Part shown: positions 1,265 to 38,377 of the stretch, piece after piece
Layout of the letters: the number at the start of each line of letters is the position of its first letter
Position numbering within the stretch: the stretch's first letter is position 1
Origin: a virus
Taxonomy: Duplodnaviria > Caudoviricetes
Reading direction: 5' to 3' (one strand)
Virus record (IMG/VR): IMGVR_UViG_3300020172_003900
Span: 1-52,423 of that record
Length of the DNA: 52,423 nucleotides
Program-made: the position numbers and the translations under genes
The notes under the pieces: model-generated
Told to the model about the DNA's origin: nothing
The model's input: the letters and a program-made list of their open reading frames with translations, nothing else
Database searches by the model: none

Positions 1265-2743
1265 TTATTTAATGATGTTCATTTTTGACATCAAATCCTT
1301 CATTCTTAAGAATTGAGGATTTTCGTAAGTTTTAGACTCAATTAAGTTAACTGCCGAACCTGAAGATGGATTTCTTTCCATTTTTTCTTGTAATGATTCT
1401 TTAACAACTGTTGCACTTCCTTGAGTAGATAACTCATCTTTTATTGTTTTATAAAGAGATTTAGACTCTTTTAAAGATTCAATGGAATCAAATCTTCTTA
1501 AAATGTTGATTTTTTCGTTTTTAGTTGTTGAATGTTCTGTGAATAATCTTGTAGCGTATGCTAAATTTGAATTAAACACTGCAACTTCATTTAACTTACT
1601 TCTGAAAATGTTTAAAGCTTTTCTATACTCTTCGTTTCTTTCTCTTAAAGTAACTAGCTCTTTTTCTACGTTCTCAACTTTTAAGTGACGTGGTGCTGCT
1701 TTTGGTTTATCTAAACCATTTCTACCCCATCTTTTTCCATTACCTAAGGTTCTTGATGCTTCAGAAGTTTCACCGTCTTGTTTAACAGTCTTTTTCATTT
1801 CCATCTTTTTACCTTCTTTGTATTCGAATTTAGGTTTACCCATTCCCATACCTTTTGGTTTCATTGTCATAGAACCTTCTTTAGTTTCCATCTTTTTACC
1901 TTCTTTGTATTCGAATTTAGGTTTACCCATTCCCATACCTTTTGGTTTGAATCCTTCTTTTGTTTCTGATTTTTTAATATCAGCGTTTTCGTTCCAGCCT
2001 TCATTGAATTCAAATTCTTCTTCAGATTCTTCGTCATCGAAGCTTCCTAAGTTTTCTAAGTTGTCAAAGTTGATTTCAAACTCTTCGTCTTCATCTTCAT
2101 CGTCCATAGAAATTTCTTCGAAATCTTCCATATCGTCATCCATTTCAATTTCAAACATAACTTCAGAATCATCGTCATCATCAGATTCTTCAATGTCTAA
2201 TTCAACATCGAAATCATCTTCACTTTCACCTAACGAAATTTTATATTCAACGTCTTCATTAGCATCTTCAAGGTCAATTGTATCACCGTCTTTTTTTACA
2301 ATAATACCGTCTTCCTCACCCATTGCTTTGAACACTTTTAAAATTTCTTCGTCAGATGCCATAGTTAAATCGATTGGTTCTTCGTCATCCATATCCATAG
2401 ATGTGAAATCGAACTCATCATCAGCAGACATATCATCCATATCTTCAGTATCGTCCATACCTTCAATATCTTCTAAATCGTCCGCCATATCATCGTCCAT
2501 TTCGTTATCATCTGAATCCTCGTCTTCTACATCTTCAATATCAGTATCCAATTGTTCGTCAACTTCCATTGTGATGTCTTCAAGGTCAGAATCTTCTTCA
2601 GTCTTTAAAGACTCTTTTACTAATTCGCTGATTTCTTGCTTCATTGTTGAAGCTAGTATTCCTTTTGCATTTTCAGCAACTACATTTTCCAAACTTTTCA
2701 TTTGGATTAGTGCCTCTTCTACAAGATTTTGTTTTTCTGCCAT
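1265..2743 (-). CDS. Prohead core scaffolding protein (gp22-like), very acidic
   Basis: Between protease and MCP; D/E-rich middle, coiled-coil C-terminus; start moved to MAEKQNL (2743). Confidence 0.75.
   Translation of the reverse strand: MAEKQNLVEEALIQMKSLENVVAENAKGILASTMKQEISELVKESLKTEEDSDLEDITMEVDEQLDTDIEDVEDEDSDDNEMDDDMADDLEDIEGMDDTEDMDDMSADDEFDFTSMDMDDEEPIDLTMASDEEILKVFKAMGEEDGIIVKKDGDTIDLEDANEDVEYKISLGESEDDFDVELDIEESDDDDDSEVMFEIEMDDDMEDFEEISMDDEDEDEEFEINFDNLENLGSFDDEESEEEFEFNEGWNENADIKKSETKEGFKPKGMGMGKPKFEYKEGKKMETKEGSMTMKPKGMGMGKPKFEYKEGKKMEMKKTVKQDGETSEASRTLGNGKRWGRNGLDKPKAAPRHLKVENVEKELVTLRERNEEYRKALNIFRSKLNEVAVFNSNLAYATRLFTEHSTTKNEKINILRRFDSIESLKESKSLYKTIKDELSTQGSATVVKESLQEKMERNPSSGSAVNLIESKTYENPQFLRMKDLMSKMNIIK
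1798..1948 (-). repeat. Exact 64-nt duplication (period 87 nt) inside scaffold gene encoding KPKGMGMGKPKFEYKEGKKME x2
   Basis: 1798-1861 identical to 1885-1948. Confidence 0.9.
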
Positions 2744-18897: not shown

Positions 18898-18944
18898 TTT
18901 GGATATTTACAAAACTATTAGTATCTTTGTAATGTTCTTTGAAA
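18898..18944 (+). promoter_or_regulatory. Bacteroidota sigmaA-type promoter plus boxA-like element for tmRNA
   Basis: TTTG(18898)-N20-TATCTTTG(18922); GTTCTTTGAAA 18934-18944. Confidence 0.7.
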
Positions 18945-18948
18945 ATAT

Positions 18949-19333
18949 GGGGATGAATGGAATCGATTGGCATAGTTGGTTATCGGTGGCACGTAGGAAC
19001 TGAGTTAATTCCTTAAAAACTGATTCAAACGATTAGACGGCAACGTTCTAGACAAAATGGCTCTATTAGGTCTTGTTAAACAAGATGAGCTTGTAGCGGT
19101 AGCGTAAGCACAACTACATTCGGGTCGGCAGACATATAACCCAGGAACAGGAGTCTTTGATGGGTTTGGTTTCTACCCTAAAGAAACTAAGTGGAGGAAT
19201 AGTTCTCAGTAAACCGAACCACTTTAAAAATAAGGGAATTGTGAATTTCGGAGTATTAGAAAATACTGACCTAAACGTGTAGTCACCTATAGTCAAGATG
19301 AACAAGACGAGAGTTCGAATCTCTCCATCTCCA
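18949..19333 (+). ncRNA. ssrA: tmRNA; predicted tag (A)GNVLDKMALLGLVKQDELVAVA* at 19039-19107
   Basis: GGGGATG/CATCTCCA acceptor with G3-U70, 3' T-arm GAGAGTTCGAATCTCTC, 385 nt, internal Ala-ending tag ORF. Confidence 0.9.
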
Positions 19334-19341
19334 CTAAAATG

Positions 19342-28448: not shown

Positions 28449-28490
28449 AAGGTAAGTATAAATCTTTGTATGAACTTAGTCAACTTTTTG

Positions 28491-28576
28491 CGGAAGATGT
28501 TGGGCTCGAACCAACGCGACCTTTCAGTCCTACCTGTTTAGCAAACAGGCCCCTTCACCAACTTGGGTAATCTTCC
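28491..28576 (-). tRNA. tRNA-Ser(GCT)
   Basis: Anticodon arm CCTGT-TTGCTAA-ACAGG; long variable arm. Confidence 0.92.
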
Positions 28577-28581
28577 AATAG

Positions 28582-28655
28582 TAGTCCCTGAGGGATTCGA
28601 ACCCCCAACCTTTTCGTCCGTAGCGAAACGCTCTAATCCGTTGAGCTAAGGGACT
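28582..28655 (-). tRNA. tRNA-Arg(ACG)
   Basis: TTTCG-CTACGGA-CGAAA. Confidence 0.92.
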
Positions 28656-28675
28656 AAAAAACGTTCAGCTCTTTT

Positions 28676-28860
28676 GAGTTGTCCCCAATACCGAATTTCA
28701 GCGGCAACCCACTTTCGTGAGGGGTTAGAACTAGTGTGTTAACTTACTCCTGCCACTGGTACACTAACCAACCGACTTAGACTCAAGTAATCGGCTCAGG
28801 TCCCTGTGGTAGTGACACCACTTCTCATCATACGGGAGCATATTAGGCGGGAACTACCTC
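28676..28860 (-). ncRNA. Putative structured ncRNA (~185 nt), unassigned
   Basis: GC-rich tRNA spacer; closing stems, several hairpins incl. CAC-GAAA-GTG, possible pseudoknot. Confidence 0.45.
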
Positions 28861-28894
28861 TTTTTTTATATTTCCGAAACACGGAAACCACGTG

Positions 28895-28982
28895 CGGTGA
28901 GAGTAGGATTCGAACCCACGGTACCCTTTCAGGTACTTCGGTTTTCAAGACCGACGCAATCGACCAACTCTGCCATCTCACC
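28895..28982 (-). tRNA. tRNA-Ser(TGA)
   Basis: TCGGT-CTTGAAA-ACCGA; long variable arm. Confidence 0.92.
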
Positions 28983-29015
28983 GTATAACCGACCTAGCTC
29001 GGTAAACACATCGGA

Positions 29016-29092
29016 TGGGGTAACTAACGGGAATCGAACCCGTGACACCTTGAACCACAATCAAGTGCTCTACCTACTGAGCTATAGCCACC
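29016..29092 (-). tRNA. tRNA-His(GTG)
   Basis: CTTGA-TTGTGGT-TCAAG; encoded G-1, C73 and CCA. Confidence 0.92.
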
Positions 29093-29099
29093 ATATTAG

Positions 29100-29232
29100 T
29101 AGTCAAGGTCGGACTCGAACCGAATACCGTTCAAGACGGAATAGACAACCTTACAACTTCTCGCGTCCAAAGGGTTATGGACCGTGGTGTCTTCAGGACT
29201 CGGGTACCATCCCTCATTACGCCCACTTGACT
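29100..29232 (-). ncRNA. Oversized tRNA-like RNA (133 nt) without a canonical anticodon arm
   Basis: Acceptor AGTCAAG/CTTGACT plus T-arm TCGG-TTCGAGT-CCGA, ~100-nt multi-hairpin interior. Confidence 0.6.
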
Positions 29233-29235
29233 AAT

Positions 29236-29303
29236 TACCCCACTTCACCAGATTAACGGACTGGCTGCCATATGGGAGTGGGGGTTTCCCGTTAATTCGG
29301 GAC
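29236..29303 (-). ncRNA. Putative small pseudoknotted RNA after tRNA-Phe
   Basis: TCCCG/CGGGA, CCCCACT/AGTGGGG, CCAG/CTGG stems; TTAACGG complementary to CCGTTAA. Confidence 0.35.
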
Positions 29304-29307
29304 TCCG

Positions 29308-29380
29308 TGGAACGGGGCGGAATCGAACCGCCGACACCTTGCTCTTCAGGCAAGTGCTCTACCAACTGAGCTACCGTTCC
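29308..29380 (-). tRNA. tRNA-Phe(GAA)
   Basis: CTTGC-CTGAAGA-GCAAG. Confidence 0.92.
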
Positions 29381-29384
29381 AAGT

Positions 29385-29636
29385 ATGATAATGATGGAGT
29401 ACCCGTCTCGCTCCAATCTTAACGGCTTCTTCTGAGTTTTATCAGTGCACTGGCCGAGGGTGCTGAATTCCGATTCCACTCTGGATTGTCGACATCCATT
29501 GAATGGGGAAAACCATTATCAATATTATTAAAATAAATCACTTTCGCCCCCTGTATATAGTTTACAGTAAACTATCTACTGTAAACCTTGGATGCTTAAG
29601 GTCATCCTTAACTATTAAGGGAGCCACCCGTGATTT
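29385..29636 (-). ncRNA. One or two putative structured ncRNAs, unassigned
   Basis: Domain 29535-29636 closed by AAATCAC/GTGATTT with long internal hairpins; domain 29385-29521 closed by TGATAATG/CATTATCA. Confidence 0.35.
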
Positions 29637-29648
29637 AATATTTTTTTC

Positions 29649-29803
29649 TTCAAAGAACTCACTTTTCAGGGGGAGTAGGTCACCATCCTACCAACTACCC
29701 ACTCCCCCGTCCAACTACAATACAAATGTACTGCGATTTTTTTAATTAACCAAACATTTTTTATTCACTTCCGAGTTTGGACGTGTTTTACTTCCGAGTT
29801 TGG
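29649..29803 (-). promoter_or_regulatory. Internal promoter of tRNA array 1 with boxA-like element and upstream 14-bp direct repeat
   Basis: TTTG-N20-TACATTTG (29723-29730); GTTCTTTGAA 29649-29658; CCAAACTCGGAAGT x2 at 29767-29780 and 29790-29803. Confidence 0.6.
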
Positions 29804-29812
29804 CATTTTTTG

Positions 29813-29885
29813 TAGTTCCTGTAGGAATCGAACCTACGACATCTTGTATGTAAAACAAGCGCTCTCCCAACTGAGCTAAGGAACT
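29813..29885 (-). tRNA. tRNA-Val(TAC)
   Basis: CTTGT-TTTACAT-ACAAG. Confidence 0.92.
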
Positions 29886-29890
29886 GTAAG

Positions 29891-29962
29891 TACCGATGGG
29901 TGGTATCGAACCACCGACAACTTCCGTATGAAAGAAGTGCTCTACCACTGAGCTACATCGGT
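29891..29962 (-). tRNA. tRNA(CAT), probably elongator Met
   Basis: CTTCT-TTCATAC-GGAAG; paired 1-72; Met versus Ile2 not certain. Confidence 0.8.
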
Positions 29963-29968
29963 ATTTTG

Positions 29969-30039
29969 TTGTCCCTGAAGGATTCGAACCTCCACTAGGT
30001 GGACCAAAACCACCTGTCCTGCCATTAGACCAAAGGACA
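29969..30039 (-). tRNA. tRNA-Gln(TTG)
   Basis: GGTGG-TTTTGGT-CCACC; U1-A72. Confidence 0.92.
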
Positions 30040-30046
30040 ATTTAAG

Positions 30047-30127
30047 TGGGAGTGGAGGGATTCGAACCCCCAATGTCATAAGACCACTGATTTACAGTCA
30101 GCTAAGCAACCGTTGCTCAACACTCCC
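30047..30127 (-). tRNA. tRNA-Tyr(GTA)
   Basis: CTGA-CTGTAAA-TCAG; long variable arm. Confidence 0.9.
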
Positions 30128-30131
30128 AATT

Positions 30132-30258
30132 TAGGAAAACAGAAGATGGTCGAGTGGACATCTGTTTTTACGATTAGCATTACTTGGGTGAATACCTGCC
30201 AACTCCGATTGTACTAGTCAGTATTCACTCTCGAACTATCAGTACAATCATTCCCTAA
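30132..30258 (-). ncRNA. Putative three-hairpin RNA with loop-loop pairings
   Basis: Stems GATTGTACT/AGTACAATC and AAAACAGA/TCTGTTTT; loop GTGAATAC complementary to loop GTATTCAC. Confidence 0.5.
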
Positions 30259-30275
30259 TCAACCTAATTTTTTTG

Positions 30276-30347
30276 CGGCCAGGGAGAATTACGATATCTC
30301 GACCTATCGCTTAACAGGCGATTGCTCTTCCTCTGAGCTACCTGGCC
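30276..30347 (-). tRNA. tRNA-Asn(GTT), atypical T-arm
   Basis: ATCGC-CTGTTAA-GCGAT; T-loop ATCGTAA. Confidence 0.85.
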
Positions 30348-30886
30348 AATTTTTTACTTATTGAGTAACCATTATGTTCTAAAATTTTAATACACCACAT
30401 TAATAATTCGTCAGTTGTTAAGTCACCTTTCATATTGTTAACAGTCGGAGTTAAAATCCCCAAATTTTCAAGGGAGTTATTCCCCCCTCTACTAACAGGT
30501 ATTATGTGGTCAAAATGATATTCGTCTTTAAATAAGTTAATATCAATTCCCGTCAAATAACATTTAGCATCCTCACCAAATTTTTCAATAACCGTCTCCC
30601 AAGTAAATGTAGTTTCAAAGTCTTTATTAATTTTACCCTGAACGGAATTATCACGTTTATTAAATTTTCGAACACATTCTTTTTTATACCTATTTTTTCT
30701 GTATTTATAAGTTTCTAATTTTTTTAGAATAATGTTTTCTCTTCGTTTTTTAGTTCTATCCTTAACTTTTTCTTTTTGACCTACACCACAATAATATGAA
30801 ATTGTTGATTTAGAACAATTTAGTATTTCCTGTATTTGTTTGTAAGTTTTACCTTCTTCTCTAAGTTGTAATATTTTTTCTTTCAT
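30338..30886 (-). CDS. HNH endonuclease with N-terminal HTH (putative free-standing homing endonuclease)
   Basis: LREEGKTYKQIQEILNCSKSTISYY HTH; FDHIIPVSRGGNNSLENL...NNMK; stop lies inside the tRNA-Asn 5' end. Confidence 0.85.
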   Translation of the reverse strand: MKEKILQLREEGKTYKQIQEILNCSKSTISYYCGVGQKEKVKDRTKKRRENIILKKLETYKYRKNRYKKECVRKFNKRDNSVQGKINKDFETTFTWETVIEKFGEDAKCYLTGIDINLFKDEYHFDHIIPVSRGGNNSLENLGILTPTVNNMKGDLTTDELLMWCIKILEHNGYSISKKLAR

Positions 30887-30957
30887 AATACTCTTTATTA
30901 ATAAATATTACATTACTCTAAAAAGTTCGATACAATCATTAAAAATTCGAACTATTG

Positions 30958-31029
30958 CACGGGTGGAGAATTACGATATCCCGACACCTGGTTTTGGAGA
31001 CCAGTGCTCTGCCCCTGAGCTACACCCGT
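30958..31029 (-). tRNA. tRNA-Trp(CCA), atypical T-arm
   Basis: CTGGT-CTCCAAA-ACCAG; T-loop ATCGTAA. Confidence 0.85.
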
Positions 31030-31034
31030 ATTAG

Positions 31035-31108
31035 AGGTCAGAGTCGGATTCGAACCGACGAATACTTGTTTTGCAGACAAGCCCCTTAAACCACTTGGGT
31101 ATCTGACC
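31035..31108 (-). tRNA. tRNA-Cys(GCA)
   Basis: CTTGT-CTGCAAA-ACAAG; U73. Confidence 0.92.
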
Positions 31109-31112
31109 GTAG

Positions 31113-31187
31113 TGTCCCCGAAGAGATTCGAACTCTTGACCCCTCCATTAAAAGTGGAGTGCTCTAAACCAACTGAGCTACGAAGAC
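31113..31187 (-). tRNA. tRNA-Lys(TTT)
   Basis: CTCCA-CTTTTAA-TGGAG. Confidence 0.92.
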
Positions 31188-31193
31188 ATTAAG

Positions 31194-31267
31194 TTGTCAC
31201 AGATGGGCTCGAACCATCGACCTTTCGCGTATCAGGCGAACGCTCTAACCAACTGAGCTATGTGACA
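31194..31267 (-). tRNA. tRNA-Ile(GAT)
   Basis: TTCGC-CTGATAC-GCGAA. Confidence 0.92.
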
Positions 31268-31335
31268 ATGTTTAGTTTTACAAAACAAATATAACCATTT
31301 TTTGGTATATAACGCTCTATTTTACTAATTTTTTG

Positions 31336-31407
31336 TCGGGGTAGCAGGAGTCGAACCTGCCGCCTCTTGGTCCCAAACCAAGCGTCTCTCCCCGAGACTA
31401 TACCCCG
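31336..31407 (-). tRNA. tRNA-Pro(TGG)
   Basis: CTTGG-TTTGGGA-CCAAG; C1-G72. Confidence 0.9.
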
Positions 31408-31425
31408 ATTATTTACTTACCAATA

Positions 31426-31436
31426 TTTCAAAGAAC
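31426..31436 (-). promoter_or_regulatory. boxA-like element
   Basis: GTTCTTTGAAA between terminator and first tRNA; 19 nt identical to 38357-38375. Confidence 0.6.
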
Positions 31437-31440
31437 ACAT

Positions 31441-31476
31441 AAAACAAAAAACCCCGAACCTAAGTTGGTTCGGGGT
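31441..31476 (-). terminator. Attenuator terminator of tRNA array 1
   Basis: ACCCCGAACC-AACTTA-GGTTCGGGGT-TTTTTGTTTT. Confidence 0.85.
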
Positions 31477-31512
31477 CTCGATGTTTGTTATTTGTCTAAC
31501 TTAATCTTATCC

Positions 31513-31623
31513 TTAATTTGTTTCATCAACAACCGAACCAATAAATGCCATACGCGGATACCAACAGTTACTAAACTGTTTTACCACGTTAATAATCGAC
31601 ATATGTTGTTTATTAGTTCTCAT
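31513..31623 (-). CDS. Leader peptide 1 (36 aa) MRTNKQHMSIINVVKQFSNCWYPRMAFIGSVVDETN
   Basis: TACCTTTG promoter box at 31662-31669; 3' part contains antiterminator TTGGTTCGG; codons match array-1 anticodons. Confidence 0.75.
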   Translation of the reverse strand: MRTNKQHMSIINVVKQFSNCWYPRMAFIGSVVDETN

Positions 31624-31707
31624 TATTTCTAATTTTATTGTTGTTTTACTTATAACTATTACAAAGGTACAAAAAGTTTCCTGATTGTCAAATAATTTTC
31701 TGTTTTT

Positions 31708-33306
31708 TTATGCTCCGCCAGTATTTTTCTTATCAATATCCTTTGCGGCGTTCATTGCGTAGGATTTAGTTTGACCCTTAACATACTTACCAACCGCCTT
31801 TTTATTTGTTAGTTTAATATCAACACCTGTTTTCTCTTTAATCTTATCCGCTAAAGCATCCTCACCTTTATTTTTAGCAATATTCATCATCTCTTGAACT
31901 GTTTTATTACTACTTTGTTTTTTAATAAAATTATCGGTAAGTGTCTCAATTTCTTTTTTATGATTATTAATTGTTTGAACAACTTTAAGTTCTTCAGGAT
32001 TAAATGGTATTTTATTAATTGTTTTTTCGGCAATTTTTTCAAAGGTTGCCGAACCAATACCTTTAAGTGCAGGTATTTCGGATGCAAATGGTAAAACACT
32101 AAATGCCATTGTAAGACCAGCTTCGGCGTTTTTACCTTCTGAGAAATATATTGCAGAATCGGCAATTCCAAGACCTGCCGCTAATAAAGGTCCAACAAAT
32201 GGTATAAACATACTTGCAATTTGTAACCCTTCAATAACTTTGTGACCTTCTTCTGCAGTTAATCCTCCCCCAACACAAGTAGGTTTTGCTCTATCGTAAA
32301 CTCCCTTAATTTGGGAAGCATTTACCGAGTCGTAAAAAGACGCCATAAAGTTATAAACCCCTTCAGGGAAATATACGGTTGCATTATTATTTGTACTGGC
32401 AACTACGTCTTGTAATAATTTACCCCATTGAAAATAAAAATCGGATAGAATAAAGTTGGCATATAATGGAGTAATTTTATTTTTATTGTGTGTCCATATT
32501 GCAGATTGTGGATTATTTATTAAATCTTTTATTGAGGTACCATAAGATGTTAATTTTTTACTTACCATTTTAACATTACCTAAACTAGACAAACCTATTT
32601 GTAAACATTCTGTATTATTCCACCCAACTCTATTTGTTTGGATATCGGTTAAATATTTTATACTAAAAAGAGCGGCTAAGTTATAGTGTTGGTTAGGACT
32701 ACTTGGAGTTGGGAAAGTATATCCTCCAAAACTATCGACAATAAGTCCTTGTGATTTTAAGAATTGATAATTTTTTTGATATTCTGTACTTGTTTCATAA
32801 CAAGCCTTTTTACCTTTAGAATCAACATACTGACCGTTTTTAGAACAAGCCTCACTTCTTTCTTTCTTTTCTTTTTGCTCTTGCCAAGTTGCTAAGTTTT
32901 CCCAATAATATTGGTCTCCATATGATTTACCACATAAATTTTTAGATAGATAACCTGACAAAACTTTTGTTTTATCGTAAAACCAAGAATTTGCAGAACT
33001 ATTCCAAAACTTACCAGCGTTTTGACCGTCACAATAATAAACAGTTGATGGTTTTATTTTTTTACCAACAACTCTATCAACAGATGCGGTAAATGATGCT
33101 CCTCCTGTGGATTTATCTTTCTTATCTCCATATTGGTGAGCGGTGAATCTTGTTCCTTTAGGTATTTTAATTTGACCACCAAGCATAGTATTTTTAGTCA
33201 AAATTCTATCTTTAACTAACGTATACGTTTGATTAACAGGCTTATTAGTTTTAGTTGCCTGTTCAATAATACTTTTAAATTGATTTTCGGTAATGATTAC
33301 TCTCAC
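31708..33306 (-). CDS. Putative internal virion protein with C-terminal hydrophobic hairpin (PT-TG-like)
   Basis: GTG start; MRVIITENQFKSIIEQ propeptide-like; IASMFIPFVGPLLAAGLGIADSAIYFSEG. Confidence 0.55.
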   Translation of the reverse strand: MRVIITENQFKSIIEQATKTNKPVNQTYTLVKDRILTKNTMLGGQIKIPKGTRFTAHQYGDKKDKSTGGASFTASVDRVVGKKIKPSTVYYCDGQNAGKFWNSSANSWFYDKTKVLSGYLSKNLCGKSYGDQYYWENLATWQEQKEKKERSEACSKNGQYVDSKGKKACYETSTEYQKNYQFLKSQGLIVDSFGGYTFPTPSSPNQHYNLAALFSIKYLTDIQTNRVGWNNTECLQIGLSSLGNVKMVSKKLTSYGTSIKDLINNPQSAIWTHNKNKITPLYANFILSDFYFQWGKLLQDVVASTNNNATVYFPEGVYNFMASFYDSVNASQIKGVYDRAKPTCVGGGLTAEEGHKVIEGLQIASMFIPFVGPLLAAGLGIADSAIYFSEGKNAEAGLTMAFSVLPFASEIPALKGIGSATFEKIAEKTINKIPFNPEELKVVQTINNHKKEIETLTDNFIKKQSSNKTVQEMMNIAKNKGEDALADKIKEKTGVDIKLTNKKAVGKYVKGQTKSYAMNAAKDIDKKNTGGA

Positions 33307-33329
33307 ATATATAAATACTTTAAGAGTAT

Positions 33330-33860
33330 AAAAAAAGAAAGGTTCTAAATCATCCCCACGCCATTTTGGGAGAACCTTTCAAAGTTAAGTATATCTTGGC
33401 GACATAATATCCCACACCATTATGACTAAGATTTGTTAGCCCATAGTAACCATCCTTGGTGGGTTTCTACTCTCACACTCCGTCCATATTTACTAACCTA
33501 ATCGATGTGTCATAGATTTTCAGATATTGCGTTCAGTGTTACCCTCAGGACATCTTCACCCTACCCCCAAAGTTACGTGGCGAGTCTCACTCGGAAGCTG
33601 AGTGTGTATTGTAGAATTGTCCAGTATTTCTACAACTTGTGGATTGTATTACGACTAATTAAAGCCCCCTTACCCCCTCTATCCATAATGGGGAATCCTA
33701 TCTAACCTGTGTAGCCTCCCCCATAGCCTTGAAGCCTTCAAGTCAGGTTCACACACCATAACAGTCGGATATCTCTGTTAATCGTGGGGTCTTAAATAGA
33801 GTATGACGTATGCTCGTTTTATAGTTGTTTCCATCCGCAAACTCACGGTTCTCTCTATTT
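33330..33860 (-). ncRNA. Large stand-alone ncRNA (~520 nt), class unassigned
   Basis: Own promoter TTTG-N19-TACATTTG (33867-33897) and terminator GAAAGGTTCT/AGAACCTTTC plus U7; GC-rich, no sense ORF of 60 aa or more, many hairpins. Confidence 0.6.
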
Positions 33861-33900
33861 CTTTTACAAATGTATGGATTTTTTTTTAATCTTCAAACAA

Positions 33901-34485
33901 TTAAGATAAAAAAGACAAAACTTTTTCTTTAATTCCAGATTGTTTTAACCCTTCATTCGCGCTTGGAGTTAAGACAAAATTTTCTAATCCCCAATCGTGA
34001 GTAAACTTCATACCATAATACATACCTGTTTTACCCATATCAAGGTCATCTATTGAAACCCAATGAGTAACTTCGGGATGGTCGTGTAAGTACTGTTTAA
34101 TTTCAATTGTACGAGTTTGTTGTAAATCCCAATCTCTAGACCAAATAAAGTTATTTCCGTGTACCGTACATTCACTTAAATTAGGTGTAAAGGCGATTGG
34201 TTTTTTTGAAATACCTTTTGACTCATAGTACTCACCCATTTCCTCAACATTTGCCCATCTTTTCCAATCCGAAGATACAACAATCTCAGCACCAGTTTCT
34301 TCTAAAATTTTATTTAAAACTTTAACCGCCTTTTCGTTGAAGTTGTCAAATCTATACTCGATTGGCATACCTTTAACATCCATAGTAAGTTTATTACCTT
34401 CCCATTTTTGTCTTTTCTTGTAACGACCTCCCCACTCTGTGGATAAACAGATTACTCCGTCGTGGTCTAAAAATATAACTTTCAT
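33901..34485 (-). CDS. HAD-family phosphatase (Swiss-Army-Knife RNA-repair-like)
   Basis: IFLDHDGV, IVVSSDW, WVSIDD. Confidence 0.82.
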   Translation of the reverse strand: MKVIFLDHDGVICLSTEWGGRYKKRQKWEGNKLTMDVKGMPIEYRFDNFNEKAVKVLNKILEETGAEIVVSSDWKRWANVEEMGEYYESKGISKKPIAFTPNLSECTVHGNNFIWSRDWDLQQTRTIEIKQYLHDHPEVTHWVSIDDLDMGKTGMYYGMKFTHDWGLENFVLTPSANEGLKQSGIKEKVLSFLS

Positions 34486-34486
34486 A

Positions 34487-34654
34487 TTATTTTTTAATTA
34501 TATAACCTAAATTTTCAAAAATTAAAATCATCCCTACAAATGATAAGATAATACAAATTATCTTCATAAACAAATCTAAAGGTGTTTTTTTACTCCAAAT
34601 AACACCAAAAAAGAAAAACAATAGTGTTGCGATAATATTGAATATTAGTTGCAT
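34487..34654 (-). CDS. 55-aa two-TM membrane protein (not in track)
   Basis: MQLIFNIIATLLFFFFGVIWSKK...LGYIIKK; fills the gap between neighbours. Confidence 0.5.
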   Translation of the reverse strand: MQLIFNIIATLLFFFFGVIWSKKTPLDLFMKIICIILSFVGMILIFENLGYIIKK

Positions 34655-34659
34655 AGTTT

Positions 34660-35613
34660 TTATTTATTTATTAGGTCAAAGATACTAATTTTTTTGTAAG
34701 GTTTGTTAGGGATTATTGTAATTTTTTTAATTTTTTTCGATAATTCTACAGGGTCTTGGTTTGTTTCAAGATATTCTTTAATTAATGATTGTAATGGTTT
34801 TGCCAAACTATTATCAATATTAGTGTGAGTACAATTTGAAACTGCGTAATTTACAACTTTTGTCTTTTCTTTATTGATTGGGTAAGCGTTACCTCCTGAT
34901 AATAATTCTTCTTGGAATTCATCAATATCTCTAACATAATAATTTAAACACACTTTAACGTTAGATGGTATCATACAATTTAAAACTAACGTTTCTTGAA
35001 CTCTTCTAGTTTTATCCTTATACTGAGGGTCAATTGTTATTAACAAATCTACGTAAATATTTAAACTTTTAAGTTTTTCACAAGCTTTAATTAGATTATA
35101 AGAGCCTAAACTATGACCTAATAACACTACTTTACCGTTAGGATTTAATTGTTTGAAATAATAAACCTCTTGTATAATGTCTTCAGTTGTCAAAAGTAAA
35201 TTGTGTGTACCAGTGTAGGTAGATACGTGGGTACTATCATTAAAATATTTTTTTTCGATTTCACCTAAACCTGGAATATCTCTACTATCGTGATTTTCAA
35301 CCATTGTTTTATTTTTACTTAAAACATCTTCGTGAGGACTAACAAAAGTTCCTTGGGCAATAATAACTAAAGTGTTTTCACTCTTTTTGAGATAATTCAT
35401 ATCATACGGAGTTAGTTCAACTTTATTACTATAATAAGTTAACTTCATTTCGTGTGCGGTTATTAAAAACCCTAAAATCCCTAACAAAAATAATGGGATT
35501 GATTTTAATTTTAATTTGGTAACTTTAATTAAAAACACAAATAACACTAATGTTGCACATAGGTTAAATATTAATTGTGAGTGTACTAAGAAAGATGATA
35601 TAATTTCTGTCAT
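34660..35613 (-). CDS. Membrane-anchored alpha/beta hydrolase
   Basis: Two N-terminal TMs; VVLLGHSLG; ITIDP; THTNID. Confidence 0.7.
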   Translation of the reverse strand: MTEIISSFLVHSQLIFNLCATLVLFVFLIKVTKLKLKSIPLFLLGILGFLITAHEMKLTYYSNKVELTPYDMNYLKKSENTLVIIAQGTFVSPHEDVLSKNKTMVENHDSRDIPGLGEIEKKYFNDSTHVSTYTGTHNLLLTTEDIIQEVYYFKQLNPNGKVVLLGHSLGSYNLIKACEKLKSLNIYVDLLITIDPQYKDKTRRVQETLVLNCMIPSNVKVCLNYYVRDIDEFQEELLSGGNAYPINKEKTKVVNYAVSNCTHTNIDNSLAKPLQSLIKEYLETNQDPVELSKKIKKITIIPNKPYKKISIFDLINK

Positions 35614-35689
35614 ATTTGTTTTTTTATTTTAATTATAATAAAAAATTACAGTAAATAAATTATGGAAATGAGTTTGTTAGAATGTTTTG

Positions 35690-35763
35690 TAGTGACGATG
35701 GGATTTGAACCCATAACCTTGACCGTATAAGAGTCCTGCGCTCACCAATTACGCCACGTCACT
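35690..35763 (-). tRNA. tRNA-Ile(TAT)
   Basis: GACT-CTTATAC-GGTC; acceptor AGTGACG/CGTCACT. Confidence 0.8.
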
Positions 35764-35768
35764 ATATG

Positions 35769-35842
35769 TGGTCCCTGTAGGGTTCGAACCTACGACCCCC
35801 TGATTATGAGTCAGATGCTCTAACCGACTGAGCTAAGGGACC
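35769..35842 (-). tRNA. tRNA(CAT), probably Ile2 (lysidine)
   Basis: GGTCCCTTAGCTCAG...CTGACTCATAATCAG, resembles ileX-type tRNAs. Confidence 0.82.
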
Positions 35843-35853
35843 TAAATAAAAAA

Positions 35854-35953
35854 GTAGTCAGAGGTTGGTGGGACTATTACCTAGGGGCTAGCACCCGTTC
35901 CCTAATAATCGGTGGACACCGATTGCCCAAATTAGGTACACCAACTTGACTAC
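35854..35953 (-). ncRNA. Putative 100-nt structured RNA, ends similar to the 29100-29232 element
   Basis: GTAGTCA/TGACTAC and GTTGGTG/CACCAAC closing stems; AATCGGTG/CACCGATT hairpin. Confidence 0.5.
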
Positions 35954-35960
35954 AGATACC

Positions 35961-36131
35961 TTAGAACACTATTAAATCTCCGTGGCAATTATCCCACTCA
36001 TCAATCCAATTTCTAATTGGTTCAATATTAATGTTTTCGGTATCAAATCTCTCGACTTGAGTACCTTGTTCTTCGGTGTTAACTTTTTCAGTTATATTTT
36101 TATTTTCGTTTGGGTCAAATACATAATACAT
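35961..36131 (-). CDS. 56-aa hypothetical protein (not in track)
   Basis: MYYVFDPNENK...HGDLIVF; A-rich upstream. Confidence 0.4.
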   Translation of the reverse strand: MYYVFDPNENKNITEKVNTEEQGTQVERFDTENINIEPIRNWIDEWDNCHGDLIVF

Positions 36132-36153
36132 TTTATTTGTGTGGGTTTTTTTG

Positions 36154-36227
36154 AGCCTCCAGTCGGAATCGAACCAACGACCTGCTGATTACAAATCAGC
36201 CGCTCTGACCTGCTGAGCTATGGAGGC
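36154..36227 (-). tRNA. tRNA-Thr(TGT)
   Basis: GCTGA-TTTGTAA-TCAGC. Confidence 0.92.
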
Positions 36228-36240
36228 AATTACCATATAA

Positions 36241-36525
36241 TTATTTGATTTTCTTATATATGTAAGTTATAGTATCTCCGATTTTATAGATATCTGACCT
36301 ATCTGTTGAAAATCTTTGACCACACTCTGTTTTGTAGTAATACTTTGGAGTTAATTCGTTGATAGCGACAGGTTGTTTAACCCAAGAACTGTCAATCACA
36401 CACTTAACTACTTTATCACCAGGTTCAATTTTATTACGGTTTTCACATCCAACTAAAAAGAAGGCAACAAAACTAATCAATACGAACCAAAGAAGTGCTA
36501 ACAAGATAGGGATATTTTTTTTCAT
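36241..36525 (-). CDS. Small lipoprotein-like protein
   Basis: Hydrophobic N-terminus ending LVGC; TAAATTTG promoter box upstream. Confidence 0.6.
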   Translation of the reverse strand: MKKNIPILLALLWFVLISFVAFFLVGCENRNKIEPGDKVVKCVIDSSWVKQPVAINELTPKYYYKTECGQRFSTDRSDIYKIGDTITYIYKKIK

Positions 36526-36548
36526 ACAACAAATTTACAACATATTTT

Positions 36549-36797
36549 TTAAACCGCCAAATACTTAATTGAATTTTTCTTAATCCATTCAGGGTCGTGT
36601 TTAAACTCTTTCCAATTATCAAAATCTTTTAATTCTTCCAAAACCTCAATCGGTATTAAAGTAAATCCATCAGGAGCAATACCGTCAAATTTATGATACG
36701 ATGCGTATTCAATTTTTTCTTTAATCATTTGACAAAATAATTCATCATTAATAAAATTATTATGTTCTTGTTCTAAAAAGTCTTCGTTAGTATTCAT
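36549..36797 (-). CDS. Hypothetical protein
   Basis: Start moved to MNTNEDF to avoid overlap with tRNA-Arg. Confidence 0.55.
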   Translation of the reverse strand: MNTNEDFLEQEHNNFINDELFCQMIKEKIEYASYHKFDGIAPDGFTLIPIEVLEELKDFDNWKEFKHDPEWIKKNSIKYLAV

Positions 36798-36811
36798 AAT
36801 CAATTGATAAG

Positions 36812-36885
36812 TGACCTCGGAAGGATTCGAACCTTCGACCCACAACTTAGAAGGTTGTTGCTCTATCCATCTGAGCTACGAGGCC
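36812..36885 (-). tRNA. tRNA-Arg(TCT)
   Basis: ACAAC-CTTCTAA-GTTGT. Confidence 0.92.
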
Positions 36886-36890
36886 ATATT

Positions 36891-37067
36891 TTATATTTTT
36901 TTAATGTTATATTTATGACCTGAGTCTGAATTTAATTCAAATATTTTCCTCATTTGATTAGCCTCGTCCTCAGTCTCAAATTCCCATATCTCATTTTGAG
37001 AATTCAATATTATTACGGGCAATTCAACACCGTTTAAATTTTTAATAAATTTTATAATAACCCACAT
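36891..37067 (-). CDS. 58-aa hypothetical protein (not in track)
   Basis: MWVIIKFIKNLNGVELPVIILNSQNEIWEFETEDEA...; TACCTTTG promoter box near 37090. Confidence 0.5.
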   Translation of the reverse strand: MWVIIKFIKNLNGVELPVIILNSQNEIWEFETEDEANQMRKIFELNSDSGHKYNIKKI

Positions 37068-37116
37068 AGTTTTTTTGTTTCTTTCATTACAAAGGTACGG
37101 ATTAAATATGAATTAA

Positions 37117-37275
37117 TCAAATAAGTCCAAGTAAAATTAGTGATTTATGGATTAATAACAACATTAATATGAATACGCCAAAAATCACAGTATATCCAAA
37201 AACACGATTATTACCCATCACTTGTTTTTTTGAACGTCCTTGCCATTCATCAGAATCCCAATCATCATTACTCAT
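37117..37275 (-). CDS. 52-aa single-TM protein (not in track)
   Basis: MSNDDWDSDEWQGRSKKQV... then hydrophobic C-terminus. Confidence 0.45.
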   Translation of the reverse strand: MSNDDWDSDEWQGRSKKQVMGNNRVFGYTVIFGVFILMLLLIHKSLILLGLI

Positions 37276-37302
37276 ACCTATAAGTATTTAATTGTTTATT
37301 TG

Positions 37303-37374
37303 CGGTCCCACGGGGAATCGAACCCCGAACTCAGCCGTGACAGGGCTGCATTATAGCCGTTTAACTATGAGACC
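37303..37374 (-). tRNA. tRNA-Asp(GTC)
   Basis: CAGCC-CTGTCAC-GGCTG; G73. Confidence 0.92.
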
Positions 37375-37379
37375 TTTTG

Positions 37380-37452
37380 AGCGGATAGTGAGAATCGAAC
37401 TCACATCTTCAGCTTGGAAGGCTGAAGTAATGAACCATTATACGATATCCGC
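37380..37452 (-). tRNA. tRNA-Gly(TCC)
   Basis: TCAGC-CTTCCAA-GCTGA; U73. Confidence 0.92.
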
Positions 37453-37461
37453 TTATTATTG

Positions 37462-37534
37462 AGCGGTAGACAGGATTCGAACCTGCGACCCTAACCTTGG
37501 CAAGGTTATGCTCTACCAACTGAGCTACTACCGC
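37462..37534 (-). tRNA. tRNA-Gly(GCC)
   Basis: TAACC-TTGCCAA-GGTTA; U73. Confidence 0.92.
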
Positions 37535-37619
37535 GTTTAGATGAGTCGTGGACTTGTGTACCACTTTTGTCCCCCTTTAAATTATTCACTAACCCCAGGT
37601 GTAGGGAAACCCATCTTAG

Positions 37620-37694
37620 TTGCGGGGGCGGGATTCGAACCCACGTAGTTTGGCTTATGAGACCAAGCTGGAACCAACTCCAGTCCACCCCGCG
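37620..37694 (-). tRNA. tRNA-fMet-like (CAT), copy 2
   Basis: C1:A72 mismatch; TTGGT-CTCATAA-GCCAA. Confidence 0.8.
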
Positions 37695-37798
37695 ATATAT
37701 CTTTGTCATCACTTCGGCCACATCGTGAAAGCCGCCCCTCACGCGTTGTTTAAAGGAATCCGATTGCGGCCTCATCCTACCGAGTTATGATAACTTTG

Positions 37799-37871
37799 TT
37801 GCGAGAGGAGGATTCGAACCTCCGACCTCAAGGTTATGAGCCTTGCGAGCTACCACTGCTACTATCTCGCG
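37799..37871 (-). tRNA. tRNA-fMet(CAT)
   Basis: C1:A72 mismatch; CAAGG-CTCATAA-CCTTG. Confidence 0.88.
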
Positions 37872-37877
37872 ATGTTG

Positions 37878-37951
37878 TGGAGATGGTGAGAATCGAACTC
37901 ACCTCAGATTGATTGCAAATCAATCTCGTCGGCCTTGAGACATACACCCCC
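37878..37951 (-). tRNA. tRNA-Ala(TGC)
   Basis: ATTGA-TTTGCAA-TCAAT; G3-U70. Confidence 0.85.
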
Positions 37952-37957
37952 ATCATT

Positions 37958-38239
37958 TTAAACGTTGTACTTATCTCCTAATTTATTAATTAGGTCAAGT
38001 TCTTCGTTACTCATTCTATGATAAGAATTGGCAATTCTATCACAAAACATTCTGTGGTCTTTTTCCATCCAACCCATTTTAGTGTCTGACACTAAAATAG
38101 ATGTACTTGAGATATGACCGTCCTCGACCAAAGCTATAATAAGCTCTTTAAGTTCTCGAGGTGAACAAGCGGTTAAAAAGTCGTCAACACTAACTTCAAT
38201 TTCCGCCTCAACTTCCACATAATCCGAAAATTCTGGCAT
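37958..38239 (-). CDS. Hypothetical protein
   Basis: 93-aa ORF between tRNAs. Confidence 0.6.
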   Translation of the reverse strand: MPEFSDYVEVEAEIEVSVDDFLTACSPRELKELIIALVEDGHISSTSILVSDTKMGWMEKDHRMFCDRIANSYHRMSNEELDLINKLGDKYNV

Positions 38240-38259
38240 AATTATTTTTTTTTAGTTTG

Positions 38260-38331
38260 TAGTCCGTGCGGGAATCGAACCCGCCTTTTATCCGTGAAAG
38301 GGATATGTCCTAACCGATAGACGAACGGACC
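38260..38331 (-). tRNA. tRNA-Glu(TTC)
   Basis: TATCC-CTTTCAC-GGATA. Confidence 0.92.
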
Positions 38332-38346
38332 ATTTAAAATCTTTAA

Positions 38347-38377
38347 CAAAGATACAACCAATATTTCAAAGAACAAA
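38347..38377 (-). promoter_or_regulatory. boxA-like element overlapping a consensus Bacteroidota promoter
   Basis: TTTG-N19-TATCTTTG with GTTCTTTGAAA (38364-38374) inside. Confidence 0.55.

Follow-up and report, generated by a model that had tools for sequence, protein, structure and literature searches.

The stretch of DNA analysed here, hereafter the window, spans the 52,423 bases of a virus record in IMG/VR with a completeness rating of 17%. It contains a gap of 594 nt (33307-33900) flanked by two minus-strand ORFs, 33901-34485 and 31708-33306, which a first-pass annotation of the sequence had read as the gene of a non-coding RNA. The strand of this RNA is the minus strand, which is also that of the 25 tRNA genes at 28490-38331, and the RNA is located between same-strand tRNA blocks at 31335-31407 and 35689-35763. 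The raised GC content noted in the first-pass annotation was borne out, with 0.43-0.44 inside the gap, similar to the tRNA blocks, vs approximately 0.29-0.32 alongside it. Unless otherwise marked, all features of the RNA described below are on the minus strand.

The upstream neighbour of the RNA (33901-34485, minus strand) encodes a 194 aa protein with the HAD domain of the 'Swiss Army Knife' RNA-repair proteins (PF18143, E = 1.7e-20). At least 162 viral stretches contain a relative of this protein, and related records carrying the same HAD gene reach sizes of 270-324 kb. Linkage between the HAD gene and the RNA was not conserved, as the RNA was present within 4 kb in only 2 of 81 HAD-centred loci. 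The 532 aa neighbour (31708-33306, minus strand) matched no Pfam family and had a single IMG/VR relative in a pattern search, and a 317 aa neighbour at 34660-35613 (minus strand) showed weak alpha/beta-hydrolase matches, all under the Pfam cut-offs. A search of the window with Rfam 15 at gathering score identified one tmRNA and 27 tRNAs, and nothing in the gap. The tmRNA (18949-19336, plus strand) was full length, with 86.5 bits over model positions 1-374 of 374. At 30958-31029 (minus strand), Rfam called a tRNA with 47 bits where ARAGORN called none. For a tRNA-like gene at 37619-37694 (minus strand), ARAGORN assigned no amino acid, the 'anticodon' having just two bases (ct), and the Rfam tRNA model gave 34.2 bits; this gene may be a tRNA mimic or have an odd anticodon loop. 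The tRNA array contains three more GC-rich, ORF-poor gaps on the minus strand, at 28656-28893, 29092-29306 and 29381-29811 (GC content 0.46, 0.51 and 0.39, respectively). Rfam returned nothing for them at E up to 1, and they are probably further orphan RNAs.

Analysis of the window for promoters revealed 12 copies of the bipartite motif TTTG-N18-21-TAnnTTTG where 2.58 were expected, a number reached by none of 100 shuffles, whereas the second half of the motif by itself was barely enriched (107 vs 84.6). We take the TTTG / TAnnTTTG consensus, from the literature on Bacteroides promoters, to be that of a Bacteroides promoter. One copy was found at 33867-33897, upstream of the RNA, consisting of TTTG (33894-33897), a 19 nt spacer and TACATTTG (33867-33874). 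The RNA had been credited with its own promoter, and this Bacteroidota-type promoter-like site supports that claim. A sigma-70 promoter scan found none on the minus strand at the gap. Other copies were located 20 nt ahead of the tmRNA (18898-18929) and directly ahead of tRNA blocks; those within or ahead of tRNA blocks included 29723-29754, 31662-31692, 36530-36561, 37090-37121 and 38347-38377 (all minus strand), which suggests that several short transcription units make up the tRNA arrays.

At the other end of the gap, a terminal hairpin (33338-33379) was followed by a run of seven U residues (33330-33336), read off the sequence as a terminator-like tail. A U-run after this hairpin was present in most family members. 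The terminator scan listed no terminator on this strand, this hairpin and its U7 included. The terminator described in the first-pass annotation is present as a hairpin and U7 but is not a plain one, because the loop and the bulge of the hairpin are engaged in two covarying pseudoknots (see below). If transcription starts near 33860 and stops at the hairpin with its U7 (33330-33379), as we infer, the transcript has approximately 530 nt. This is close to the unit of about 520 nt proposed at first, except that the span proved to be a composite of a 67 nt module and a core of approximately 460 nt. In this phage, the promoter at 33867-33897 would drive the RNA together with its 67 nt hairpin, and transcription would stop at the knotted 3′ hairpin and U7.

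Part of the stretch was contained in 20 public sequencing runs, six of which were RNA libraries. In four metatranscriptome runs, which came from four studies, contigs placed at 85% likeness covered 33335-33874. The flanking ORFs were wholly uncovered in three of the four runs, and the fourth (X17) had a low-depth stretch at 33902-33955; 33200-33334 and 33956-34000 were left uncovered by the contigs, which is a weak hint. Summed word depths were up to 2,600 in one metatranscriptome (X15), and several of the RNA-library contigs spanned the border between module and core. These contigs, which reveal neither the strand nor the ends of a transcript, may contain DNA and come mostly from relatives, provide a hint that the family RNA is expressed.

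BLAST analysis (blastn) of the RNA against 50,697 GenBank phage records gave no match, and within related phage records it revealed full copies in G001, G003 and G017. An exact 23-mer identified 13 viral loci and a degenerate central motif identified 47. The central motif pattern was not found in any of 185,579 prokaryote species genomes (one genome per species), so there was no sign of prophage copies. An independent 5′ motif was present in at least 119 metagenome stretches. The pooled searches amounted to 139 loci carrying the 5′ motif, of which 102 were non-redundant; 125 loci were full length, and 90 of these were distinct; eight incomplete loci and loci too short at the 3′ end were left out of the alignment. 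Nucleotide identity to the window was 57% upwards. As the homologues were gathered via sequence patterns, and the extraction step demanded a GGTTAC-like word, the collecting motifs are conserved by construction.

A model of the central 166 positions (R1), which gave 195 bits on the window, was searched in 48 records with the HAD gene. Six of them, including that of the window, matched at 184-201 bits and four more at 16.7-18.9 bits; the RNA is dispensable. G048 and G051 are among the records with such weak matches. A divergent relative was found at 1390-1680 (minus strand) of L289 in G020, and likewise in G021 and G022, with 16.9 bits. These are 100%-complete phages of 270 kb in which the weak match lies downstream of a tRNA block, after a protein gene rather than a tRNA. 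It retains ACAAG, GUAACU and GGAUGGUUACUA together with the hairpin that follows but seems to be without the 5′ domain, and on its sequence it is likely a divergent sub-family without that domain. Four records picked up by the motif scans contained a single copy of the RNA each; three of these were rated 100% complete (269-304 kb). The carriers are uncultured freshwater jumbo phages with Bacteroidota-type-looking promoters, and the RNA lies within their tRNA/tmRNA/GOLLD gene block.

All 193 tRNAs found in the 102 non-redundant loci were on the strand of the RNA, and 74 of these loci had at least one, so that the tRNA-proximal phage context, which had been likened to that of the ROOL and GOLLD RNAs, was upheld. 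In 52 of 86 loci, a tRNA started no more than 30 nt past the 3′ hairpin. On the other side, 7 of 96 loci had a tRNA ending no more than 5 nt ahead of position 1, and 31 of 96 had one ending no more than 150 nt ahead. In L099, L104, L105 and L166, for example, a tRNA-Leu was located 100 nt upstream and a tRNA-Thr directly downstream. The flanks varied among loci, which had various tRNAs, a protein gene, a promoter or nothing at these places. As tRNAs abut the RNA, its release in relatives is likely by tRNA-processing nucleases, which in most of them would cut it from the tRNA-array precursor.

The home of the RNA in a tRNA gene block bears on an explanation in which it is a decoy or sponge that neutralises a host RNA-targeting defence (an anticodon nuclease or other ribotoxin), or a recruiter of phage RNA-repair enzymes. 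The gene upstream of it in the window, which encodes the HAD of 'Swiss Army Knife' RNA-repair proteins, would fit such a role, as would an accessory, patchy distribution like that of many counter-defence genes. We nevertheless consider this explanation unlikely, as the HAD gene is linked to the RNA in only the two loci mentioned above, ARAGORN and the Rfam tRNA model detected no tRNA-like substructure inside the core and no partner is known.

The core of the RNA comprises approximately 460 nt in the window (33338-33793), with a family range of approximately 340-550 nt. It was numbered from position 1 at the invariant AAGACCCCAC, so that the window coordinate of position p is 33794-p. Structure was tested on an alignment of 90 sequences (A3); the hand-curated structure has 86 pairs in 17 helices. 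In this alignment 94.4% of the paired cells could pair, compared to 82.1% in 500 shuffles, none of which reached the observed value, and to only 34.8-48.7% when the 3′ partners were slid by 1-3 columns. Changes on both sides were found in 63 of the 86 pairs (43.4 in shuffles) and in 915 cells (252 in shuffles), and the covariation score was 0.384 (0.164 in shuffles); such shuffle-based statistics are inflated by kinship among the sequences. The folding energy of the single sequence was unremarkable (z = -0.42 for the minus strand, with 36 of 100 shuffles folding equally well), and the case for structure therefore rests on the comparative evidence. An ordinary folding energy is expected of a knotted fold, though it is no support for structure either. 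The covariation among homologues that the first-pass annotation had named as a check was thus positive, and the alignment supports 17 helices backed by covariation, including five pseudoknots, through which almost all hairpin loops are paired with a further strand. Large insertions were tolerated at two sites, of approximately 75 nt near position 90 and of 6 to approximately 60 nt within helix S10.

These data also bear on an explanation in which there is no RNA gene and the gap is either the remnant of a protein gene or a spacer whose conservation is due to chance. The gap does contain one ORF of at least 60 aa, a 66 aa frame on the plus strand (33505-33705), and the folding z-score is ordinary. 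The counterpart of this frame, however, was free of stop codons in just 12 of the 90 homologues and the length of the equivalent stretch was not kept modulo 3 (39/36/15), in agreement with the first reading that there is no credible ORF. The broken frame and the compensatory changes, 915 cells over 63 pairs, contradict this explanation, and the GC content, elevated like that of the adjacent tRNAs, also counts against it; we regard its probability as negligible. With 90 distinct homologues, the comparison confirmed that the minus strand of 33307-33900 encodes a stable structured non-coding RNA.

The 5′ domain of the core (positions 1-95; 33699-33793) begins with the invariant AAGACCCCAC. It contains hairpin S1 (33775-33780 with 33759-33764), which was 98.4% paired with both-side changes in four of six pairs, and variable insertion site 1 (near 33700-33708), where relatives have inserts of approximately 75 nt. 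Three helices predicted by RNAalifold in this part of the RNA (8-11 with 41-44, 52-57 with 61-66 and 70-77 with 99-106) were 95.5% paired with no both-side changes, and the last of them competes with helix S3. As these three lack compensatory change, parts of the 5′ domain structure are tentative. Two further candidates were rejected by eye: a long-range ACCC:GGGU helix from RNAalifold (4-7 with 233-236), because positions 233-236 vary and the 5′ word is invariant, and a pairing of AUAUCC in the S1 loop with GGAUAU (382-387), which showed no co-variation.

The loop of S1 contains the palindrome GAUAUC in the window (33768-33773). The centre of this loop, xUAy with x and y at positions 22 and 25, was AU in 38 sequences, GU in 22, GC in 15, UA in one and another combination in 14 (n = 90), so that the core was self-complementary in 76 of 90 sequences and the pair 22:25 failed in 14. 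A tally by S1 loop sequence showed that C at position 25 never occurred with A at position 22. Positions 22 and 25 are nearly adjacent and unable to pair inside one loop. Longer palindromes were present in subsets of the sequences (GAUAUC, AGUACU and AAGUACUU). In OLE and GOLLD, such a self-complementary loop is the sign of chains that kiss symmetrically (PMC12286853). The S1 loop sequences accordingly offer a hint of a symmetric RNA-RNA contact, a weak one because the outer pair 21:26 failed in 54 of 90 sequences, and a palindrome acting at the DNA level or in protein binding would give the same pattern.

Upstream of the core, the window copy has an accessory 5′ hairpin module of 67 nt (33794-33860), identified by comparison, with the closing stem AAAUAGAG/CUCUAUUU and an inner GUUU/AAAC helix. 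The module was ahead of the core in 25 of 103 loci (the window counted) and was present without the core in G007 and G008. It showed compensatory changes, with GUCC/GGAC in place of GUUU/AAAC and closing stems that differ pairwise. It had been proposed that GAGAACC at the 5′ end (33847-33853) pairs with GGTTCTC at the 3′ end (33370-33376) in competition with the terminator stem. Both words are at these positions on the minus strand, but a conserved anti-terminator pairing did not hold up: the 5′ word was invariant and the 3′ stem was different in 5 of the 22 loci showing both ends. The differing 3′ stems among these five loci (GATCCTC, GATCCAC and GTCAGTT) occurred with GAGAACC unchanged and no compensating change. 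As the 3′ stem varies while GAGAACC stays constant, the pairing has no comparative support.

The central domain (positions 96-262; 33532-33698) holds helices S3 to S8, S4 among them, which were 79-100% paired. Helix S3 (33690-33694 with 33673-33677) is knotted with S5 (33681-33685 with 33640-33644), the first of the five pseudoknots. They are followed by S6 (33628-33636 with 33608-33616), S7 (33600-33604 with 33588-33592) and S8 (33579-33583 with 33564-33568). The loop of S6 (33619-33622) pairs with positions 243-246 (33548-33551), a pseudoknot that was 100% paired with four of four pairs covarying, and in the curated structure the loop of S7 (33594-33597) pairs with positions 237-240 (33554-33557). 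The hairpins of the first-pass annotation fared differently in the alignment. TAACAG/CTGTTA, TTGTAGAA/TTCTACAA and CACTC/GAGTG correspond to S1, S6 and S7 and are backed by compensatory changes; CTTGAAG/CTTCAAG was compatible with the alignment (91.7% paired) but had zero changes on both sides. AACCTG/CAGGTT was not conserved (61.1% paired vs 60.4% in shuffles) and is peculiar to the window copy.

The loop of S8 contains the invariant GUAACU, which is complementary to a GGUUAC in the 3′ domain; the latter word was present in all of the 90 sequences, GGTTAC-like words having been demanded in extraction. Both words are kept in every sequence, and the pairing between them is a candidate on complementarity. 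By eye, A at position 217 of the S8 loop (33577) seemed always to occur with A at position 224 (33570), and these positions otherwise had C, U or G with U in A3; this pattern may be a non-Watson-Crick co-variation reflecting a tertiary contact.

The alignment placed variable insertion 2 at 33476-33538, closed by helix S10 (33535-33538 with 33476-33479), which was 90.7% paired with both-side changes in four of four pairs. The interior of S10 in relatives was either a loop of approximately 6 nt or one of several differing inserts of 50-60 nt. The 3′ domain (33394-33475), supported by covariation, includes helix S11 (33457-33463 with 33412-33419; 95.7% paired, six of seven pairs covarying), the invariant GGAUGGUUACUA (33444-33455) and hairpin S12 (33436-33441 with 33424-33429; 99.8% paired, six of six covarying). 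A P1-like closure, CCCAC/GUGGG, was rejected, as GUGGG is part of S11 and covaries with another strand. The stem of the 3′ terminal hairpin (33338-33379) was 91.4% paired and eight of its nine pairs changed on both sides. The loop of this hairpin (33359-33363) pairs with a linker of the 3′ domain (33397-33401), and the S12 loop (33430-33434) is the partner of the 3′ bulge of the hairpin (33347-33351). These two pseudoknots were 89.1% and 90.2% paired, each with both-side changes in five of five pairs.

A terminal hairpin held in pseudoknots and followed in most members by a U-run could switch termination, and the RNA might then be a cis-acting conditional terminator or processing platform that sets the output of the downstream tRNAs or, in the window, of the 532 aa gene. 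The start of the downstream gene within 30 nt in 52 of 86 loci would also suit such a role. This explanation is nonetheless quite improbable: a core of 340-550 nt with approximately 12 further helices is far beyond the needs of a terminator switch, the downstream gene is not conserved (different tRNAs, the protein gene here, or none) and the depth in the RNA libraries was centred on the RNA itself.

The RNA was compared with known families using the 4227 models of Rfam 15. With E up to 10, the region 33200-34000 gave three matches at chance level, the best being GibS (20.9 bits vs a cut-off of 115). In ten homologous loci searched with E up to 10, tRNAs were found in the flanks and only sub-threshold scraps over the cores, such as sX4 (22.8 bits vs 70) and anti-hemB (23.1 vs 49.5). 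The GOLLD model (RF02032), with a criterion of at least 150 bits, and the ROOL model (RF03087) had no match in the window, in 33200-34000 or in the ten homologous loci. As a positive control, the GOLLD model gave 312-317 bits elsewhere in three of four genomes carrying the RNA; these separate loci show that the model works on these phages and that GOLLD and the RNA are distinct genes. Neither the gap nor the ten homologous loci matched the models of bacterial RNase P RNA (RF00010/RF00011) at E up to 10, and the group I and group II intron models had none, with no conserved exon context. The search against Rfam that the first-pass annotation had called for, with ROOL, GOLLD, OLE, RNase P and group I/II introns in view, thus returned no match to any of them, and its suggestion of a new class is the reading that the data favour. 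A search of the literature, covering main texts, found no description of the family RNA, and passages of a paper on the aquatic jumbo 'moraphages' make no mention of non-coding RNAs (PMC12619734).

An RNase P RNA had been considered, on account of a GGGUGAA motif and a size of about 380 nt, and was dropped as Rfam gave no match even at E up to 10; the stretch concerned, GGGUGAAG, instead provides the strands that pair with the S6 and S7 loops. A group I intron, considered for R/S-like words, was likewise dropped, given the lack of an Rfam match and of conserved flanks. The RNA might still be a highly divergent member of GOLLD, ROOL, OLE, RNase P RNA, the group I/II introns or tmRNA, and it shares a phage and tRNA context with GOLLD and ROOL (PMC12286853). 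We judge this very improbable, as none of the 4227 models matched the window or the ten homologous loci, at gathering score or at E up to 10, and GOLLD scored 312-317 bits at loci of its own in three of four genomes.

The peripheral insertions at fixed sites found here may resemble those of RNase P RNA and introns. Size, pseudoknot density and the invariant single-stranded AAGACCCCAC, GGCUAUGGGGGA, GUAACU and GGAUGGUUACUA are also typical of large ribozymes, and the conserved unpaired stretches held by pseudoknots could be an active site that frees the RNA from its tRNA precursor or acts on other RNAs. Such a ribozyme is distinctly unlikely, however: no Rfam ribozyme or intron model matched at E up to 10, the neighbours differ among loci with no conserved flanking exons, and the flanking tRNAs already supply processing sites. 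Moreover, GOLLD and ROOL share these features and are not known to be catalytic (PMC12286853).

The RNA thus has to be set beside other large or tRNA-associated phage RNAs. ROOL RNAs are approximately 580 nt in size, and the T4 RNAs RNAC and RNAD are approximately 120-140 nt. GOLLD (RF02032) is a large pseudoknotted phage or prophage RNA, often beside tRNA genes, with a conserved and a variable part and a function that is not known (PMC12286853); the family RNA resembles it in these respects and shares jumbo phage genomes with it in three of the four checked. It differs from GOLLD in being about half the size (340-550 nt vs more than 800 nt for many GOLLD members) and in being a separate gene, with GOLLD 6-29 kb away in the same genomes and no match in sequence or structure. 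Multimer formation has been shown for GOLLD; for the family RNA, the self-complementary core of the S1 loop is a hint of it. ROOL (RF03087) is similarly a multi-pseudoknotted phage or prophage RNA, often near tRNA islands, and it has no known protein partner, its kissing loops building an RNA-only cage (PMC12286853). The palindromic S1 loop is a feature of the type that forms kissing-loop contacts. Unlike ROOL, the family RNA had no Rfam match to that model and has other helices and conserved motifs; the hosts differ as well, the promoters here looking Bacteroidota-type, with no sign of prophage copies. RNAC and RNAD of T4 are stable non-tRNA RNAs within a phage tRNA cluster, with roles not known (PMC3014915). 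The family RNA gene likewise lies inside a phage tRNA array and on the strand of its tRNAs without being a tRNA gene itself. The T4 RNAs and the family RNA are probably released by the same processing as tRNAs. The family RNA is much larger and far more elaborate than those of T4, its window copy has its own promoter-like site, and blastn found no similarity in the GenBank phage records, a collection presumed to include T4.

Taken together, the loops engaged in pairing, the invariant unpaired stretches, the insertion-tolerant sites, the company of tRNAs, tmRNA and GOLLD and the patchy distribution are best fitted by a trans-acting particle. With moderate confidence, we therefore favour the reading that the locus is the gene of a stable, trans-acting, multiply pseudoknotted RNA of a family absent from Rfam 15, a folded particle of the GOLLD/ROOL kind. 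Like GOLLD and ROOL, the RNA would fold into a compact particle and in that form bind either a partner or another copy of itself; it would act neither by antisense pairing nor as an mRNA leader. A bolder proposal is that, next to GOLLD and ROOL, the family is an independent third class of 'ornate' phage RNAs that self-assemble, a compact monomer with five pseudoknots that forms dimers or multimers through the S1 palindrome and takes part with GOLLD in the takeover of host translation in the same jumbo phages, or else a new large ribozyme acting on tRNA precursors; this we consider rather unlikely.

To our knowledge, large intricately folded RNAs without a known protein partner are rare. Each such class of RNA has opened new biology, as the ribosome, RNase P, the introns and recently the GOLLD and ROOL cages have done. 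The present family adds a well-supported, uncatalogued RNA class carried by giant phages beside tRNAs, tmRNA and GOLLD. Being of modest size and having a strongly constrained fold, it is tractable for cryo-EM and functional tests, and its co-occurrence with GOLLD provides a natural system for asking what such RNAs do. It suggests that what giant phages deliver to the cell goes beyond spare tRNAs and amounts to an entire set of RNA machines.
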